DNA from: a virus
Taxonomy: Duplodnaviria > Heunggongvirae > Uroviricota > Caudoviricetes
Reading direction: 5' to 3' (one strand)
IMG/VR virus record: IMGVR_UViG_2671180724_000008
DNA: 64,000 nucleotides
Each line of letters starts with the position of its first letter. The stretch's first letter is position 1. Below the pieces are notes generated by a model that was not told the origin of the DNA, made no database searches, and saw nothing but the letters and a program-made list of their open reading frames with translations. The translations under genes and the position numbers were made by a program. Of the stretch, positions 20,349-25,848 are shown piece after piece.

Positions 20349-21667
20349 AAAAGTTGATCGCACTTAAGCATAAGCTGGACGAAATGAAAGCTATGGGAAC
20401 CAATGCAAAAAAAGAGGCATTGGCCAACATGGATGACTTCGAGCAAAGCATGGTTTCATTGATGCTCAACCCTTTCATCCGTTTTGGGGTAAAGAAATAC
20501 AAAGTGGCAGAGCCGCTTAGTGAGTCCGTCCCAAGTGACGAAAAAGCCATTGATATACTGAATAAGCTGGCCTCTCGCGAGCTGACGGGGAACGCAGCAA
20601 TAGCTGCTGTTGAGTCTATCGTGGCGTCAATGTGCGCCGATGGGCAGGACGTGTTCCGTCGTTTCCTCTTAAAAGATCCGAAAGCTGGCGTTGGGATTAG
20701 CCTATGCAACAAGGTTTTTGAAAATCCCATTCCGAAATTCGAGGTGCAGCTGGCGTCACCGTATAAAGAAAAAGGCGACAAATACCCCTTCAAGCCAAAT
20801 CCTAAAGCAAAATGGCCGATGATTGGCAGCCTTAAGCTCGATGGTTTGCGAGTAATTTGCGAGGTTATTGTTGACGAGGAAGAGGTGAACTTCCTTTCTC
20901 GTACTGGTAATCCAATCACGTCTCTCGATCACCTAAAGCCAGCCATGCTCGAATTAGGCAAACTTTCAGGCCACAAACACATCTTCTTCGATGGTGAAGG
21001 AACAGCCGGTTCATTTAACAAGTCCGTATCTGCATTGCGCAAAAAGAACGTGCAGGCAATTGGCGCTATTTATCATGTTTTCGACTTCTTCCTACCGGAA
21101 TGGCGGGCACAGGCTAAATCCAAAGAGTATGCAAAGACAGGTATGAAGCTGAAAGAGCGCCTGGCTATTCTCGTGGCGTTGTTCAAAAACGATCGCAGTG
21201 AAGACTACGCGCAAGACATTCACCTACATCCGTTCTACATCATCCATAGCCACGAAGACTTCATCGAACGCTTCATGAAACGCCTGGACGATAACGAAGA
21301 AGGGGAGATGGGCAAAGATCCGAACTCTGTTTACGAGTTTAAACGTACCCGCAGCTGGTGGAAGTTAAAAGACGAAGATTCAGAAGATGGTGAAATTATC
21401 GACTTTGAGCCGGGCGACCCGGACTCTGGTTTTGCCAACACACTTGGAAAAATTGTTATTCGTCTTGAAAACGGCGTCATCGTTCGTGCGAGCGGCATTA
21501 AGCATAAATATCTGGACGAGATCTGGAACAACAAAGAGAAGTACCGTGGTCGTATTGTCGAGGTTCATTGTCACGAGAAAACACCGGACGGCAGCTTACG
21601 CCACCCACGACTGAAATGGCCGCGTTGCTTACGCGATACAGAAGATCGAATCGGAGATAAAGAATGA
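20345..21667 (+). CDS. ATP-dependent DNA ligase
   Basis: 440-aa ORF with nucleotidyltransferase motif I KLDGLR (GSLKLDGLRV). Confidence 0.65.
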   Translation: MKKLIALKHKLDEMKAMGTNAKKEALANMDDFEQSMVSLMLNPFIRFGVKKYKVAEPLSESVPSDEKAIDILNKLASRELTGNAAIAAVESIVASMCADGQDVFRRFLLKDPKAGVGISLCNKVFENPIPKFEVQLASPYKEKGDKYPFKPNPKAKWPMIGSLKLDGLRVICEVIVDEEEVNFLSRTGNPITSLDHLKPAMLELGKLSGHKHIFFDGEGTAGSFNKSVSALRKKNVQAIGAIYHVFDFFLPEWRAQAKSKEYAKTGMKLKERLAILVALFKNDRSEDYAQDIHLHPFYIIHSHEDFIERFMKRLDDNEEGEMGKDPNSVYEFKRTRSWWKLKDEDSEDGEIIDFEPGDPDSGFANTLGKIVIRLENGVIVRASGIKHKYLDEIWNNKEKYRGRIVEVHCHEKTPDGSLRHPRLKWPRCLRDTEDRIGDKE

Positions 21668-21843
21668 TGCTCGGCTGGATGATTGCATTTTTAGCGGTTG
21701 GTTTTTTAATCGGTATTGTGGTGATGTCCAGTTGCATCAATGACTACATTAAAAGCGGTGTTATAGAACGACGCGGTCGTATTTATCGCATTGTAGAAAT
21801 AACCCACACAGTGAAGGAGATTAAGGATGATCGTATTAAGTAA
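21664..21843 (+). CDS. small membrane protein (paralog A)
   Basis: 59-aa ORF, absent from the ORF track (under 60 aa). ATGA overlap with the ligase stop. One TM helix and a conserved C-terminal GRIYRIVEITH motif shared with the ORF at 22039. Confidence 0.35.
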   Translation: MMLGWMIAFLAVGFLIGIVVMSSCINDYIKSGVIERRGRIYRIVEITHTVKEIKDDRIK

Positions 21844-22042
21844 GCGGGAGAAGGAAACGCTTCATGAAATCAGTAAGTGGCCGGAGTTCCCTGAGTACTG
21901 GAAGCCTAAAACGCGGGCTAAGTTAGAGCGGTTAGGGTTGGTTGCAAACGTTTCTGAAACGTGGTGTTCGGCCAACTACCAGTTAACTGATAAAGGGAAA
22001 GTATTGCTACAGCAATTAGTAGAATCAGGAGCGTTCAAATGA
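21827..22042 (+). CDS. hypothetical protein
   Basis: 71-aa ORF overlapping the preceding small ORF. Confidence 0.35.
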   Translation: MIVLSKREKETLHEISKWPEFPEYWKPKTRAKLERLGLVANVSETWCSANYQLTDKGKVLLQQLVESGAFK

Positions 22043-22191
22043 TTCCATACATCTCATTAGCTTTTATGGGTGGCTTCCTTATTGGCTTCGGCATCTGTCG
22101 TGATTTAATTAAGCAGGAACTTAAAACCAAAACACTGTGCATCGGAAAGCGTGTGTATCGGGTAGTTCATGAAACAAAGGTGAAAAAATGA
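22039..22191 (+). CDS. small membrane protein (paralog B)
   Basis: 50-aa ORF, ATGA overlap with the preceding stop. One TM helix and a C-terminal KRVYRVVHETK motif paralogous to the ORF at 21664. Confidence 0.35.
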   Translation: MIPYISLAFMGGFLIGFGICRDLIKQELKTKTLCIGKRVYRVVHETKVKK

Positions 22192-22478
22192 GCAATTTAA
22201 CTTCTTGGGAATGGTGGTTGGCCACCTATTTCTTAGCGGCCGGAGTCGCATTCGCCTTTTACGTAGGTCAGTTAGTCGTAAAACTGTTGCTGATTAAATT
22301 TGCTAGTCATAAACGTATCGATGATGGTCTGTGGCGTCTTGGCACCCTGGTGGAAACTCGCTACGGGCAACTTAAGGAGAACGAAACCATTACTATCCAA
22401 GCGAAACGATTCACTGCCACCATCACAAGAACACCTAGTCGTAGAGTGGCATTGATCAAAAAAGTCACAACCGAATAA
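22188..22478 (+). CDS. hypothetical membrane protein
   Basis: 96-aa ORF with an N-terminal TM helix; ATGA overlap with the preceding ORF. Confidence 0.35.
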   Translation: MSNLTSWEWWLATYFLAAGVAFAFYVGQLVVKLLLIKFASHKRIDDGLWRLGTLVETRYGQLKENETITIQAKRFTATITRTPSRRVALIKKVTTE

Positions 22479-23256
22479 AAACATATTGATAAGTATTTAC
22501 TTACTTATCTTTTGTGTATAAGATGACTTTGTTTTCGTTGAGACGCGACTGTTTGAACTTAAATACAAGTGCAAACGAAGAAGTCTATCTGGCAGTAGCC
22601 TAATAAGCCAAACACCAGCGAGGTCAGTTTCCAGCCTCGTTACCGAAATGGGACACACTGAGCGAGTGTGATTGCAGAACGCAGGAGGGAACATTCATGT
22701 TCCCTCCGATGAAGTAACAGAATGGGCGGTTGGTATATTTTCAACTCCATATGACTCCCGGATTCTTAGCCACTGACCGCCCATCCTGTTACGTCATTTT
22801 GTTCAATTATGTCGTTTATACTGGGTTAAAAAGCGGCGACGTAGCCCGGCTGGTATGGTTAGCCAGCACACAACGTTGAGGCCATTACATTTTTATCAAT
22901 TCTAAGGTTCTATTCACAGAGATACCGGCGAGCGTTGATATGTAACATGTTGGGCAAACATTCAATCGGAGTAGTGGCCTCAACGTTGTGAAGACGGGAT
23001 TGTTGTGTAGGTTTAACCACTGTTGCCATTGGTGCCTGTTTTCACAACAAATGATTCCATACATCACATTGTATAAATTACAAAGTAGGTGCTGTCCTCA
23101 GAAACATCATCTACTTAAAGATTTTGCCTTCTACTATTGAGCGAAGTCGAAAGCGTCTGGCACTAACGAAAAGTGCAAGTAGCGGTGCGTTTCCTGGCAG
23201 AAACTAAACCGTCGCGATTGGCACTGTTGAGTAATAAATACTGGCAGTGCTGAATT

Positions 23257-23331
23257 GATGGTGTAGCTCAGCGGTAGAGCAGTTGGCTGTTAACCAACTG
23301 GTCGGTGGTTCGAATCCACCCACCATCGCCA
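23257..23331 (+). tRNA. tRNA-Asn (anticodon GTT)
   Basis: Canonical cloverleaf read by eye: acceptor gatggtg / caccatc, D-arm gctcagcggtagagc, anticodon loop ctGTTaa, T-arm ggtggttcgaatccacc, encoded CCA. Confidence 0.8.
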
Positions 23332-23336
23332 ATTTA

Positions 23337-23423
23337 GGGGAGTTAGTCCGTAGAGGTAGCGGTGTAGACTGTAAATCTACTGTCATTGCGACTCGGGTGG
23401 TTCGACTCCATCACTCCCCACCA
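23337..23423 (+). tRNA. tRNA-Tyr (anticodon GTA), type II with long variable arm
   Basis: Acceptor ggggagt / actcccc, anticodon stem-loop gtaga-ctGTAaa-tctac, long variable arm, T-loop ttcgact, encoded CCA. Confidence 0.7.
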
Positions 23424-23427
23424 AATT

Positions 23428-23503
23428 GCCGGTTTAGCTCAGTTGGTAGAGCGCCTGCCTTGTAAGCAGGATGTCAGCGGTTCGTGTCCGTTAACCGGCA
23501 CCA
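23428..23503 (+). tRNA. tRNA-Thr (anticodon TGT)
   Basis: Acceptor gccggtt / aaccggc, D-arm gctcagttggtagagc, anticodon loop ctTGTaa, T-loop ttcgtgt, encoded CCA. Confidence 0.75.
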
Positions 23504-24171
23504 ACATAATATTGAGAACATTGGCGTAACGGGGTCATATCCCAATCTATGAATAAATGTTACGTTGCCGCGTGACAACCAGTGTTCTCAACATTGTGGT
23601 GAATGCACAGGCTGATGTGCCGCAACTACAGTAGTGCGCGCTTTGCGGGGCTTGCTACAACCCTGTGTCGGAGATCAGCGCCGACCATCACAATTTGGCT
23701 CTCTTGCAACAGCATAACGCTGAAATATGTCCAACCTGGTGCGGCCTGTTCACCCGCCGTTAGCTCCACGAAACGGAGCGCACAACAGATAAGAGAACTT
23801 CCCATATGGGGCTTGGCTTAAATGCATCGAGTTCTCTTATCGCTGTGTCACAGACAAATTTCCGACAGCCCTGTTTATCATCGGACGCAACCTAAAAGGT
23901 CGAGGCAAAGCCAGGTAATAGCGGAGGGAGTGACACAGCACACAACAGGTAAGAGCATTTGTAGAGTTCGACTCTCTACCGTGGGCTTTTTCCCGCGATG
24001 CGAGCCATAAATGCTCTTTCCGTTGTGGTGGATTCGCAGACTGATGCGATAGCTTTCTTGGATGTTAGGGAAATGCGGCCGCAAATCTTCCCTTTCGCGA
24101 GCGGTGATCGTCCGTAGTCCTAATTGGCTGCACCGTATGCCGGAGATTCAGTACCGGCCACCACAACGGCC

Positions 24172-24258
24172 GGAGAGTAGGGAGCATGGTGCTCAAGCGG
24201 TCTTGAAAACCGTCCCATTGTGCAAACGATGATGGTTCGATTCCATTACTCTCCGCCA
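24172..24258 (+). tRNA. tRNA-Ser-like (anticodon TGA), type II, non-canonical D-arm
   Basis: Acceptor ggagagt / actctcc, anticodon stem-loop gcggt-ctTGAaa-accgt, long variable arm, T-loop ttcgatt, encoded CCA. The D-arm is irregular, so function is uncertain. Confidence 0.5.
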
Positions 24259-24260
24259 GA

Positions 24261-24338
24261 CACAGCGTTGAGCGGTTTGGCCTTTTAATCAACTCGATTA
24301 AGACTCCGCTAACATAAACCAGACCGCTCAACGCTGTG
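24261..24338. repeat. long imperfect inverted repeat immediately after the tRNA cluster
   Basis: 20-bp arms (19/20 match): cacagcgttgagcggtttgg and ccagaccgctcaacgctgtg, separated by a 42-nt loop. Confidence 0.6.
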
Positions 24339-24370
24339 ATAGACAATTACGGCAGACGTTCTTAACCATA

Positions 24371-24400
24371 GCTTGCTAACATCCTAGCAACACTTTTTTT
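24371..24400 (+). terminator. rho-independent terminator after tRNA region
   Basis: ttgcta-acatcc-tagcaa hairpin followed by cacttttttt. Confidence 0.5.
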
Positions 24401-24413
24401 CAGCGCAAAATTC

Positions 24414-24436
24414 AAAGGGGCTTCGGCCCCTTTTTT
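24414..24436. terminator. bidirectional rho-independent terminator
   Basis: aaaggggc-ttcg-gcccctttttt, with an A-run upstream and T-run downstream. Lies just past the 3' end of the minus-strand gene 24454..25788. Confidence 0.75.
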
Positions 24437-24453
24437 GAAAGCAATGGGCAAGT

Positions 24454-25788
24454 TCATGCCAAATTATCCAGATTTCTTTTCTTTTTTTCAATTATATTTC
24501 TCGCGCCAGAAAAAATTTTACTCAAAATAATTGATTTGCTTGCTCTATTATTAAGATGTAACAACGCGCTATAAAATACATAGTTATCTATTTTACTATT
24601 TAAAGTATTCCCAAGCTTCCCGTTATATGTGCTATTAATAGTATTAAAATATACATGTTCAGGACCTATATTACAAATACCCCTATCAACTCGCTTTAAA
24701 TAATGTTTAACTAAAGAAATAGCATCTTCCTTATCATTAATAACATAAAGTCCTGAGCGTTTACCTAGCTTGCTGTCCGAGAATAATTTATAACCAACAA
24801 GTTCATTTAACGTATTATCCACTTTTGTCAACTCTTTGTTGGCAATCTCCAAATAATACTCAATCTCTTTCTCCATATTACTTATTAAAGAGTTAAATTC
24901 TGCTCGTAACAAATCACCACCAGGTGATTTATAACTCCATAAAATTGAATTGGTAATACGTACTACGTCAGATACTTCTGGTTTCTCTGAATAGTTTTTG
25001 TATCTAGTGCAAATAATGCTGTGCTTTATATATTCTCTAACTAATGATCGATAATCCCTTTCGAAAAGGTTTTTGACATCTAGTCTTCCATTGCTTGTTG
25101 TTATTAAGGTGGTGTTTAAAACTGGGTCGCCTTCAAAAAAATTATATTTATTTAGTAATCGTTTTAGCTTGTGTGAATTATGTGATGTTTCGCCATAATA
25201 ATTTATCCCAAAAATAGCAATTATTAGCATAACATCAGGAGTGATGAAATGTCGTAATTGCTCGGCATAAACTTTTTTATCTTCGATTTTCGAAGATGGA
25301 GAGTAAAAACCTTTGTCTATATATTCTAATATTGAAACAATATTACTAACATAACGTATAAAAACTTGATTCATTACAACGGAATCATAAACCTGATGCA
25401 AATAATCTACTCTCAAGTTGTTTTTTATTTTTTCCCCTGTACTAGATGATAACTCTTCTTTTACCTGCCCAAGTAGCTTTTCGTGGTGCTCCAGCAATGT
25501 TTTAAACCATTGTTCAAATGATGATTTTCTTGCCTCAGTTAATGAATCTGATGTTATCTGGACAGCTTTCATAGCTGCTTTCGCACTTTTCTTTGCTTCA
25601 TAAGCGTTCCATGCTGAAGCACAAAAAGCTGCCGCCGTGATGCAACTGGTAAAAATAGAAATCCTATCTGCAACATTCAAGCTCCAGAACCAATCAGACG
25701 ATGAAATCAAAACCACAGATATTACGGGAACAATGAAAATCAAAACAGGCATGTATGTACTCGCTCTAATAGTTATTAGTCGAGGCAA
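24454..25788 (-). CDS. low-GC membrane protein of unknown function (candidate accessory / defence or exclusion gene)
   Basis: 444-aa minus-strand ORF in a markedly AT-rich segment. Two predicted N-terminal TM helices, then a largely helical soluble region with no nucleotide-binding or nuclease motif recognisable by eye. Own terminator at 24414..24436. Confidence 0.5.
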   Translation of the reverse strand: MPRLITIRASTYMPVLIFIVPVISVVLISSSDWFWSLNVADRISIFTSCITAAAFCASAWNAYEAKKSAKAAMKAVQITSDSLTEARKSSFEQWFKTLLEHHEKLLGQVKEELSSSTGEKIKNNLRVDYLHQVYDSVVMNQVFIRYVSNIVSILEYIDKGFYSPSSKIEDKKVYAEQLRHFITPDVMLIIAIFGINYYGETSHNSHKLKRLLNKYNFFEGDPVLNTTLITTSNGRLDVKNLFERDYRSLVREYIKHSIICTRYKNYSEKPEVSDVVRITNSILWSYKSPGGDLLRAEFNSLISNMEKEIEYYLEIANKELTKVDNTLNELVGYKLFSDSKLGKRSGLYVINDKEDAISLVKHYLKRVDRGICNIGPEHVYFNTINSTYNGKLGNTLNSKIDNYVFYSALLHLNNRASKSIILSKIFSGARNIIEKKKRNLDNLA

Positions 25789-25848
25789 ATATTATATAAA
25801 TCTCGTTATGATTTACAGACATGTATACGTATTGCTAATTATCACCAA

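Follow-up and report, generated by a model that had tools for sequence, protein, structure and literature searches.

The 64,000-nucleotide stretch of tailed-phage DNA analysed here (IMG/VR virus record IMGVR_UViG_2671180724_000008, Caudoviricetes), referred to as the window, belongs to a phage-plasmid of the SSU5/pHCM2 type; Escherichia phages CMS-2020a and Cyrano are nearest, at 97-99% identity with block-wise gaps. Its region 22496-24440 holds four transfer RNA (tRNA) genes, a chain of hairpins, a series of long-stemmed modules and, at the left end, an element of about 150 nt, termed the tag element, with a short reading frame like that of bacterial transfer-messenger RNA (tmRNA). The region is read here, with a probability of about 0.55, as a polycistronic operon of stable RNAs led by an orphan tag-template RNA, the tag of which would be read in a manner resembling trans-translation. 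The features on which this reading depends are the following.

22531-22680, plus strand: tag element, a putative orphan tmRNA-like message domain with a 5' GUUUUCG...GCGAC block, the tag frame and two pseudoknots (conservation, covariation)
22571-22606, plus strand: tag reading frame GCA AAC GAA GAA GUC UAU CUG GCA GUA GCC UAA UAA, encoding ANEEVYLAVA and two stops
22618-22653, plus strand: pseudoknot A, with stem 1 formed by 22618-22623 and 22635-22640, and the loop 22629-22633 (UUCCA) paired with 22649-22653 (UGGGA)
22654-22670, plus strand: pseudoknot B, with stem 1 CACACU/AGUGUG formed by 22654-22659 and 22665-22670

The tag frame, absent from the list of the first-pass annotation of this DNA, is the most informative feature of the region. 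Its peptide is like the ssrA tag of E. coli (ANDENYALAA and two stops), with LAVA in place of ALAA at the C-terminus. Distant BLAST matches to the query 22479-23256 reveal about 100-150 nt that unrelated phage families conserve at 76-86%, and the frames found in this way differ by synonymous TAT/TAC, GCA/GCC and GCC/GCT changes. No start codon is conserved; GCA is the first codon throughout, and an in-frame stop precedes it by 5-7 codons, with no in-frame ATG, in 92 of 134 elements. The length of GCA plus nine codons plus a stop holds in all 143 collected instances without an insertion or deletion. The stop keeps its place by way of three triplets (TAA, TAG, TGA), and a tyrosine or phenylalanine position is maintained by TAT, TAC, TTC and TTT. 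Upstream of GCA, the alignment of tag elements has the signature -6A/-5U/-4A; position -4 is an A without exception, and conservation of the U in position -5 is at least 90%. An alternative frame, AUG-CAA-ACG, overlaps the resume codon; it was rejected, its start being GUG or CUG in other lineages and the frame being truncated in P1.

The 143 instances come from two collections. The first (134 elements) used a search pattern that fixed most first and second codon positions. The second was agnostic to the tag, with its anchor solely in the downstream pseudoknot, and returned 69 elements, 60 of them already known. The frame is intact in 69 of these 69, including the new variants ANEEMYLAAA, AKDDQFLAVA and ANDNAFLAVA. 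The peptides follow the general pattern AN[DE][DEN]x[YF]LAVA, and a literature search for them returned no paper containing any. Tags and carriers are as follows.

ANEEVYLAVA: the window, Cyrano, CMS-2020a
ANDNQYLAVA: pJN2-26
ANEDTYLAVA: SSU5
ANEEMYLAVA: HK620, Carvaje, pIS4-A
ANDNVFLAVA: wV8
ANDDLMMVAA: P1, D6
ANDDLMMAAA: P7
ANDEQFLAVA and ANDDQFLAVA: many lambdoid prophage contigs

The RNA structure of the tag element is conserved along with the frame. RNAalifold, unaided, recovered two helices with compensatory changes. An explicit model, in which a small helix enclosing the stop codon is followed by two H-type pseudoknots, was tested on a 57-sequence alignment. Its pairing holds in 92.3% of cells, against 39-48% when the 3' partners are slid, and both sides have changed in 14 of 28 pairs (101 cells). 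The covariation score is 0.226, compared with 0.05-0.10 for slid partners and 0.111 for shuffled alignments, and none of 500 shuffles reaches it. Stem 1 of pseudoknot A occurs in the compensatory variants GUGAGG/CCUCAU, GCAAGG/CCUUGU, GCGAGG/CCUCGU and ACGGGG/CCCCGU, and its loop pairs downstream as CCAG:CUGG, CCGA:UCGG, CCAA:UUGG and GUCG:CGAC across lineages. In pseudoknot B, stem 1 shows CG/UA/GC changes (alignment columns 163-168 with 179-184), and its second stem, although uncertain in the SSU5 type, can be made out clearly in other lineages. Upstream of the tag frame there is a possible hairpin, CUUUG/CAAAG (90% paired), and no pseudoknot 1.

The tag element is carried by phages that share little else. 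The query 22479-23256 is matched by 317 phage records, most of them over the tag-element stretch alone, and the element occurs in Felixounaviruses, HK620, Klebsiella and Aeromonas siphoviruses and P1, and in P7 and D6 too. It is present in 754 plasmids of PLSDB (Klebsiella 310, Escherichia 224, Enterobacter 88, Salmonella 45, Yersinia 43); pHCM2 of S. Typhi CT18 and the ~100-kb plasmids of Y. pestis carry it at about 92-93% identity. Among 5426 complete E. coli genomes, 157 have prophages with the HK620-type leader. Among the PLSDB matches listed, no feature lies under the tag element, in a gene table that carries no RNA genes, and almost all of the E. coli matches listed are without a feature from the Prokaryotic Genome Annotation Pipeline under the leader. 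P1, HK620, Felix O1-like phages and pHCM2/pMT1-type plasmids all carry the unit without annotation, and it constitutes a previously unannotated family. A scan of bacterial contigs with the pattern AAACACCAGN{45,75}TGTGATT was too loose and gave only chance matches in unrelated phyla.

In phages, the tag element occupies unannotated DNA adjoining tRNA genes and co-oriented with them, or, in HK620, the late leader. A tRNA gene on the same strand follows within 1.5 kb in 69 of the 114 loci with enough flank, and one on the opposite strand in 0 of 114. HK620 and many lambdoid loci have the tag element and modules without any tRNA. The lambdoid array is downstream of a terminator-like hairpin after PR'/qut; that of HK620 (A module, tag element, A and B modules, classes described below) sits between such a hairpin in the annotated qut region and the late terminator tQ. 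In P1 (NC_005856), the tag element (ANDDLMMVAA, about 1506-1665) is part of the C1-controlled ban leader, where it comes just after the annotated 'dicF-like region' and a terminator. The lambdoid position after PR'/qut and the P1 position in the ban leader suggest that the array may be expressed during lytic development together with the tRNAs. The P1 open reading frames (ORFs) plp and upl (2075-2644) lie on the strand opposite conserved B- and A-type modules and overlap a tRNA-Thr gene; both may be mis-annotations.

Comparison with tmRNA brings out a likeness confined to one half of that molecule. Both have a short frame that begins at GCA without a start codon and encodes a ten-residue ssrA-type peptide (AN[DE]E.[YF]...A), a stop inside a small helix, pseudoknots downstream and a gene among tRNA genes. 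As in tmRNA, the frame leads from a resume codon other than AUG to a stop, and the peptide is of ssrA type with a hydrophobic, Ala-rich C-terminus (ANEEVYLAVA, ANDEQFLAVA, ANEEMYLAVA, ANDDLMMVAA). The conserved A at -4 and U at -5 are placed as A86 and U85, the bases by which E. coli tmRNA sets its resume codon and frame (PMC2481249). However, the tag element has no attached acceptor stem, G3-U70 pair, CCA end or T-arm, lacks pseudoknot 1 and has two pseudoknots after the frame, measures about 150 nt compared with about 360 nt, mostly ends its tags in LAVA instead of ALAA, and scores far below the Rfam gathering thresholds. The reference models were RF00023 and the permuted two-piece forms RF04321 and RF01850. 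Matches of Rfam in the tag-element area are to tmRNA models only, at E 0.01-0.05, and wV8 reaches 29.2 and 15.4 bits, below cut-offs of 47-84. Judged from sequence, the family is like the message half of tmRNA, lacks the tRNA-like features that define that molecule and is not a tmRNA.

Several ways of supplying the missing half were considered and set aside. T-loop hairpins are confined to some module cargos (12 of 86 types), and none is followed by an acceptor strand and CCA. In wV8, an unannotated D-arm-less tRNA-like unit (2202-2280, anticodon loop CUUCUAA) combines a G3-U70 acceptor with ACCA; in the diverged relative L257, an intact, normal tRNA-Arg(UCU) gene takes the corresponding position, so the wV8 unit is, by this comparison, a decaying tRNA-Arg(UCU) gene and was rejected as a tRNA-like domain. 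A tmRNA-like topology through alternative pairing of the arms of upstream and downstream A modules was likewise rejected. Several lineages without an upstream module have a promoter directly upstream of the element, and there is no CCA end. The promoters directly precede the invariant GUUUUCG in three lineages (TTGACA-17-TAGATT, TTGACA-17-TATAGT and, in the window, the promoter-like TTTACT-17-TAAGAT) and therefore leave no room for a 5' acceptor strand. Prediction of RNA duplexes between tag RNAs and E. coli tmRNA was uninformative (z 0.1 to 1.0 in 5 of 6 phages).

Phage-borne tmRNA derivatives have precedents. In a 2014 tmRNA census, ssrA among RefSeq viruses was limited to mycobacteriophages and Bacillus phage G (PMC4131195), and full tmRNAs are known from Bxz1-like mycobacteriophages, Bacillus phage G and huge phages (PMC4131195, PMC7162821). 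Mycobacteriophage DS6A has a tmRNA fragment consisting only of the tRNA-like domain (TLD), thought to titrate SmpB (PMC4131195). As in DS6A, one half is kept; there it is the tRNA-like half and here the message half, and the hosts are Actinobacteria and Firmicutes in those cases as opposed to Enterobacteriaceae.

Other known systems resemble parts of the region. The tRNA gene cluster of T4 yields 'species 1 and 2' (rnaC, rnaD), stable non-tRNA RNAs without known function, which are co-transcribed with, and processed from, the phage tRNA precursor. They are not known to have a tag frame, and the likeness is one of description. RNase III processing stems flank 16S and 23S ribosomal RNA (rRNA) and T7 early mRNAs. 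In the same manner, the 5' and 3' flanks of the module cargos pair over about 20 bp, interrupted by a bulge or mismatch, within a putative polycistronic precursor; the cargos here are 26-260 nt and hypervariable, B-type modules add kissing loops, and cleavage is presumed. Bacterial Y RNA (YrlA) has a long 5'/3' basal stem around a tRNA-like T-arm, as does the module at 23941-24028, but only 12 of 86 cargo types here have the T-loop motif. Y-RNA models gave no Rfam match at E<=10 in 22300-24600, and neither rsr nor rtcB was seen among the ORFs flanking the region (21500-25800).

Four tRNA genes follow the hairpin leader on the plus strand.

23257-23331, plus strand: tRNA-Asn(GTT) (ARAGORN; Rfam at gathering score)
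23337-23423, plus strand: tRNA-Tyr(GTA) (ARAGORN; Rfam at gathering score)
23428-23503, plus strand: tRNA-Thr(TGT) (ARAGORN; Rfam at gathering score)
24172-24258, plus strand: tRNA-Ser(TGA) (ARAGORN; Rfam tRNA-Sec model at 46.8 bits, cut-off 47)

ARAGORN finds exactly these four, as the first-pass annotation had counted, and they alone in the region have a cloverleaf with anticodon (ARAGORN, RF00005). The tRNA-Ser(UGA) gene fails the general Rfam tRNA model, and the D6 record carries the same ambiguity between Ser and Sec; the anticodon UGA is that of Ser, and Sec would need UCA. At gathering score, Rfam 15 matches three tRNAs and nothing else in the 64-kb window, and a relaxed scan of 22300-24600 (E<=10) gives no further tRNA and no other credible family. 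Set against general E. coli values, ACA, UCA and UCU codons show an enrichment of about 2x, fitting tRNA-Thr(UGU) and tRNA-Ser(UGA); Asn and Tyr codons are not enriched. It had also been noted that 22479-24400 holds no credible ORF. Six ORFs of 59-93 aa are present there, with no Pfam match and one weak PHROG match (E 0.003), in agreement with that view.

Between the tag element and the tRNAs, the SSU5-type leader (22680-23256) is a chain of helices with compensatory changes. An RNAalifold alignment of 38 unique SSU5-type leaders, which form two clades (95-100% and 65-69% identical to the window), shows helices throughout 22666-23215 that keep their pairing.

22684-22707, plus strand: the 11-bp hairpin of the first-pass annotation, 5 of 11 pairs compensatory
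22708-22798, plus strand: long hairpin, 25 bp, 3 compensatory pairs
22807-22844, plus strand: conserved hairpin, 10 bp, 0 compensatory pairs
22848-22869, plus strand: conserved hairpin, 7 bp, 1 compensatory pair
22869-22990, plus strand: C-type module 1, stem CACAACGUUGAGGCC.../...GGCCUCAACGUUGUG with cargo, 20-nt arms, z = -6.4
22985-23048, plus strand: hairpin, 13 bp, re-using GUUGUG 22985-22990 with a second CACAAC at 23043-23048, 4 compensatory pairs, z = -3.4
23083-23116, plus strand: helix, 10 bp, 5 compensatory pairs
23119-23158, plus strand: helix, 0-1 compensatory pairs
23160-23176, plus strand: helix, 5 bp, 2 compensatory pairs
23179-23215, plus strand: helix, 6 bp, 1 compensatory pair

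In the leader alignment, the helix of C-type module 1 spans 22875-22984 (14 bp, 5 compensatory pairs). The hairpin 22684-22707 has a loop of 2 to 15 nt in relatives and, together with the next hairpin, a z-score of -7.8. It had been taken to sequester a mini-ORF (MFPPMK), which does occur in this sequence; in relatives, the stem covaries while the loop grows and the ATG and frame vanish. The hairpin therefore reads as an RNA helix, not a translational device. The hairpin 23160-23176 (GCACU-AACGAAA-AGUGC) and a small hairpin further on, 23763-23779, both have 7-nt loops with ACGAAA.

The downstream half of the region, from 23502 to 24338, is a mosaic. BLAST comparison with P1, P7, D6, Ro157c2, CMS-2020a and Cyrano finds its blocks present, absent or re-ordered, and the breakpoints coincide with hairpin edges. 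The blocks are long-stemmed modules of three scaffold classes, A, B and C, that have CACAAC/GUUGUG at the base of the long stem and a variable cargo.

23502-23601, plus strand: long hairpin module directly after tRNA-Thr, arms 23502-23524 and 23579-23601
23593-23694, plus strand: B-type module 1, closing stem AUUGUGGUG/CAUCACAAU, hairpins GCACA-GGCUGA-UGUGC and UCGG-AGAUCAGCG-CCGA with complementary loops
23763-23779, plus strand: small hairpin GCUCC-ACGAAAC-GGAGC, recurring before A modules in several lambdoid loci (read from sequence)
23781-23849, plus strand: A-type module variant (GA/UC replacing GG/CC), cargo CCCAUAUGGGGCUUGGCUUAAAUGCA, z = -4.1
23941-24028, plus strand: A-type module CACAAC-A-GG-U-AAGAGCAUU ... 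AAUGCUCUU-U-CC-GUUGUG, z = -4.25, cargo holding a T-arm-like hairpin at 23961-23979
24023-24167, plus strand: B-type module 2, GUUGUGGUGG/CCACCACAAC, hairpins UCGCA-GACUGA-UGCGA (24035-24050) and CCGG-AGAUUCAGUA-CCGG (24140-24157), z = -2.4
24261-24338, plus strand: C-type module 2, CACAGCGUUGAGCGG.../...CCGCUCAACGCUGUG, 20-nt arms at 95%, z = -10.3

The A-type stem consists of CACAAC, a bulged A, GG, a U-U mismatch and then 9 bp. Among its 132 modules, 31 distinct stems occur, which show compensatory changes at positions 3-8. The cargos (26-260 nt) are of 86 types; 12 of these have the T-loop motif, among them the one with the hairpin 23961-23979. B-type modules (56, in 20 scaffold variants) have a closing stem, GUUGUGGUG/CACCACAAC, and two small hairpins with complementary loops; both stems covary, and the loop-loop pairing GCUGA(U):(A)UCAGC shows the compensatory change ACUGA:UCAGU versus GCUGA:UCAGC. 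The two C-type modules share CACA(A/G)CGUUGAG...CUCAACG(U/C)UGUG. Other phages usually have the units arranged as (A) - tag element - A - B - tRNAs. The block 23502-23601 is common to P1, P7 and D6 at 88-91% identity, and 23781-23849 is directly 3' of tRNA-Thr in P7 and Ro157c2. The cargo CCCAUAUGGGGCUUGGCUUAAAUGCA (about 23800-23830 here) is also found within a different stem in Felix O1-like L257 and in L128, so cargos are independent units. The GUUGUG at 22985-22990 can pair with CACAAC at 22869 or 23043, and that at 24023-24028 with 23941 or 24162; neighbouring modules would therefore compete for the shared hexamer or stack on it, leaving one CACAAC(A) unpaired. Frequent G-U pairs and strict co-orientation with tRNAs argue that the modules act as RNA. 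Analogies with integron attC sites and with CRISPR were rejected, given unfit core sites, the location of all units on one strand and the G-U pairs in the stems. Hairpin-framed cassettes with hypervariable cargo are without known counterpart and are a second unexplained class of RNA exchanged between unrelated phages.

The observation made in the first-pass annotation is confirmed, and the structure of the tRNA region is well in excess of chance. With arms of at least 12 nt and at most one mismatch, it has 7 inverted repeats, compared with 0.22 +/- 0.47 in shuffles (maximum 2) and a mean of 0.68 (maximum 3) in other 1.9-kb tiles of the window. Fold z-scores are between -2.4 and -10.3 for 7 of 9 segments. 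The individual repeats reported by the first-pass annotation are where it had placed them: the perfect 11-bp hairpin (22684-22694/22697-22707), the inverted repeat of about 20 bp near 22866 and 22970 (22869-22888/22971-22990, 20 nt, 95%), the T-arm-like GTAGAG-TTCGACT-CTCTAC (23961-23979) and the repeat 24261-24280/24319-24338 (20 nt, 95%). To these are added hairpins at 22709-22797, 22985-23048, 23502-23601, 23593-23694, 23781-23849, 23941-24028 and 24023-24167. Its interpretation is partly supported. Small stable RNAs or processing signals were the right general class, with helices that covary in relatives 65-69% identical; the suggestion of degenerate tRNA genes suits no more than a minority: the T-loop motif is present in 12 of 86 types of cargo, and no further tRNA emerges from relaxed scans with Rfam and ARAGORN. 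It had named sensitive scans without further RNA genes as an outcome that would speak against it. Known families indeed yield none, but this result is misleading, as Rfam does not include the families of these elements.

The limits of the proposed transcription unit are marked by two features.

22496-22524, plus strand: promoter-like TTTACT-N17-TAAGAT, overlapping an AT-rich hairpin (22488-22509) after the upstream ORF (putative, read from sequence)
24371-24440, plus strand: tandem intrinsic terminator-like hairpins, UUGCUA-acaucc-UAGCAA with T7 and GGGGC-uucg-GCCCC with T6 (read from sequence)

The promoter-like spacing is kept in SSU5, and pJN2-26 has TTTACT-17-TATGAT. To the left lies the last small ORF (22188-22478; phrog_4507 match, 1.8e-58) of a run 3' of a DNA ligase gene. 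To the right is a convergent AT-rich gene (24454-25788, minus strand), which the second terminator-like hairpin faces.

Within these limits the array is conserved, its helices covary, its tag frame is preserved, its units are co-oriented with the tRNAs and its modules are exchanged as a mosaic. On the reading as a stable-RNA operon, 22496-24440 would be one rightward unit that yields stable structured RNAs and no protein. In order, these are the tag RNA of about 150 nt, the hairpin chain of about 550 nt (specific to SSU5/pHCM2-like phage-plasmids), tRNA-Asn, -Tyr and -Thr, five to six modules, tRNA-Ser, a further module and the two terminators. A single transcript, started at the weak promoter (about 22496-22524) or by read-through, would extend to the terminators. 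The tRNAs would be freed by RNase P and RNase E, and the stems of about 20 bp are probably cut by RNase III, which would release the tag RNA and cargo RNAs. Ribosomes would read the tag frame in a trans-translation-like way, so that stalled or rescued chains would receive a phage tag ending in LAVA, not ALAA. The tag RNA and tRNAs would thus maintain translation in lytic growth or under defences that cleave tRNA or mRNA. Phage tRNAs are also regarded as counter-measures to tRNA-cleaving defences (PMC10264068, PMC11555353), and an RNA that handles stalled ribosomes would fit such an anti-defence tRNA island. The weakest link is the entry of ribosomes into the tag frame without an attached tRNA-like domain.

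A number of observations weigh against this reading. As far as is known, trans-translation needs a template tethered to an alanylated tRNA-like domain, and HK620 has the tag element and no tRNA-like gene. The window scores 22.7 bits with RF04321 (cut-off 47) and 17.3 bits with RF01850 (cut-off 84), both below gathering; ARAGORN in tmRNA mode reports no tmRNA in the window or 134 loci, and a custom scan for a T-arm with 7-bp acceptor and NCCA gave none in the window and nothing usable. The profile of the phage element aligns to E. coli ssrA over the tag alone (2.1 bits), which also rules out that host ssrA was captured recently. In its nested fold, the tag element is no stabler than shuffles (z = -1.1). 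The codon-position signal of the first collection was partly built in by its search pattern, which left third positions alone free; codon-position entropy was accordingly discounted and the tag-agnostic collection used instead. The promoter at 22496-22524 falls below the scan threshold of 9/12 and, like the cleavage by RNase III, is a deduction from the sequence. A literature search returned neither expression data for pHCM2/SSU5 nor evidence of processing or of the peptide.

The main rival to a translated tag is an untranslated decoy. Here, the tag RNA would imitate the message domain and pseudoknots of tmRNA and titrate S1, RNase R or the SmpB tail, altering ribosome rescue, non-stop mRNA decay or an RNase R-dependent defence. 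The lack of a tRNA-like domain in every lineage suits this view, as do the cross-links of S1 to U85 and pseudoknots 2-3 of tmRNA (PMC2481249), the use of host tRNA and tmRNA fragments that bind RNase R by a phage anti-CRISPR, AcrIIIA1 (PMC11662646), and the TLD-only fragment of DS6A (PMC4131195) as a precedent for phage half-tmRNAs. It is nonetheless doubtful. A pure mimic needs neither a stop fixed by three triplets nor a ten-codon length free of indels in 143 instances, and the upkeep of tyrosine or phenylalanine by four codons is not explained by mimicry. Moreover, RNA-level similarity to host tmRNA is nil outside the tag, and the phage tags consistently depart from the host tag at the C-terminus. 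It is unlikely that the hairpins are a processing scaffold, that is, RNase III, E and P signals for a tRNA operon in which the tag frame is a functionless relic of a complete phage tmRNA. Long stems do abut tRNA ends (23502 after tRNA-Thr, 24167 before and 24261 after tRNA-Ser), and RNase III typically acts on bulged stems of about 20 bp, as it does in the processing of rRNA and T7 transcripts. However, HK620 and many lambdoid loci have the array without a tRNA, phage families with little else in common retain the tag element, covarying and with its frame intact, and conserved cargo families move between different stems, so the inserts matter too.

The inverted repeats with their CACAAC/GTTGTG ends could instead be recombination or mobility sites in DNA, akin to miniature inverted-repeat transposable elements, attC sites or cassettes. 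Mosaic breakpoints do fall at module edges (P1, P7, D6, Ro157c2, CMS-2020a, Cyrano), 132 A modules hold 86 cargo types and one cargo occurs in different scaffolds. Such a role is quite improbable, since all units are co-oriented with the tRNAs on one strand, the frequent G-U pairs of the stems work only in RNA of this strand, covariation of loop-loop and pseudoknot pairs has no rationale in DNA and no recombinase is adjacent; shuffling through homologous recombination at the conserved stems would agree with the RNA reading instead of competing with it, and a recombination role in DNA may supplement that reading without taking its place. Very unlikely is a sponge for small RNAs (sRNAs), in which exposed CACAACA at module bases mimics the targets of the GcvB R1 seed, like the prophage anti-sRNA AgvB. 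CACAACA is the GcvB R1 target consensus, AgvB occupies the same lambdoid 'moron' slot (PMC4104026), and each of two GUUGUG copies (22985, 24023) faces two CACAAC partners, one of which must stay unpaired. AgvB and AsxR are, like the modules, non-coding RNAs 3' of PR' in lambdoid phages and have a CACAACA motif (PMC4104026). The motif is mainly the paired base of covarying stems, though (compensatory variant CACAGC/GCUGUG), and the sRNA architecture with a terminator is absent. AgvB-type anti-sRNAs have 51-60 nt, with a 3' region that is conserved, a 5' seed that varies and a Rho-independent terminator (PMC4104026), without long closing stems; the modules have 70-150 nt and long closing stems, lack terminators and show no sequence match to AgvB. 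An ordinary small gene is extremely unlikely: from the in-frame ATG at 22523, the window and its closest relatives could encode a 26-aa protein, MTLFSLRRDCLNLNTSANEEVYLAVA, with an ssrA-like degron, yet SSU5 has an in-frame TGA 6 codons upstream, most other elements (the 92 of 134 above) lack an in-frame ATG, there is no Shine-Dalgarno sequence and conservation upstream of GCA ignores the frame.

In its general form, the proposal that the RNAs of enterobacterial phages and phage-plasmids (P1, HK620-, Felix O1- and SSU5/pHCM2/pMT1-type) are the template half of tmRNA, read by ribosomes, is tentative, and on balance it may well prove wrong. Trans-translation is thought to need the tRNA-like and message-like parts of tmRNA in one particle. 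If the proposal is true, a tag template would reach the stalled ribosome with no tRNA-like domain covalently attached; it might dock on host tmRNA-SmpB, for example, or take another entry route. The phage would swap the host degradation tag (...ALAA) for its own (...LAVA), and the tag RNA, together with tRNAs and cargo RNAs framed by hairpins, would belong to a mobile 'translation-repair' RNA island. A covarying, frame-preserving message half without the tRNA half would be either a new use or subversion of ribosome rescue or a new class of tmRNA mimic. It would extend the current view of phage tRNA clusters as islands for anti-defence and maintenance of translation. The carriers include several of the best-studied coliphages and plasmids of S. 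Typhi, Y. pestis and Klebsiella, and annotation would be affected at hundreds of "intergenic" stretches and at some dubious ORFs (such as P1 plp and upl) that overlap conserved RNA modules.

Two further observations concern the surroundings. A 22-nt direct repeat, caaATGATTCCATACATC, occurs in the leader at 23048-23070 and upstream at 22036-22057, where it is the start of ORF 22039-22191 (MIPYIS...). The leader copy is kept in all SSU5-like relatives, and the frame that follows it is not (in SSU5, MIPYIQ and a stop). Directly after the RNA operon, the 444-aa ORF 24454-25788 (minus strand) is part of an island of 30-32% GC, matches phrog_18168 at 1.8e-177 and scores 21.7 bits (cut-off 22) with Pfam putAbiC, a putative abortive-infection protein. 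Different genes occupy this position in Cyrano, SSU5 and pJN2-26, so the ORF reads as an insertion, and it looks like a defence-type gene.

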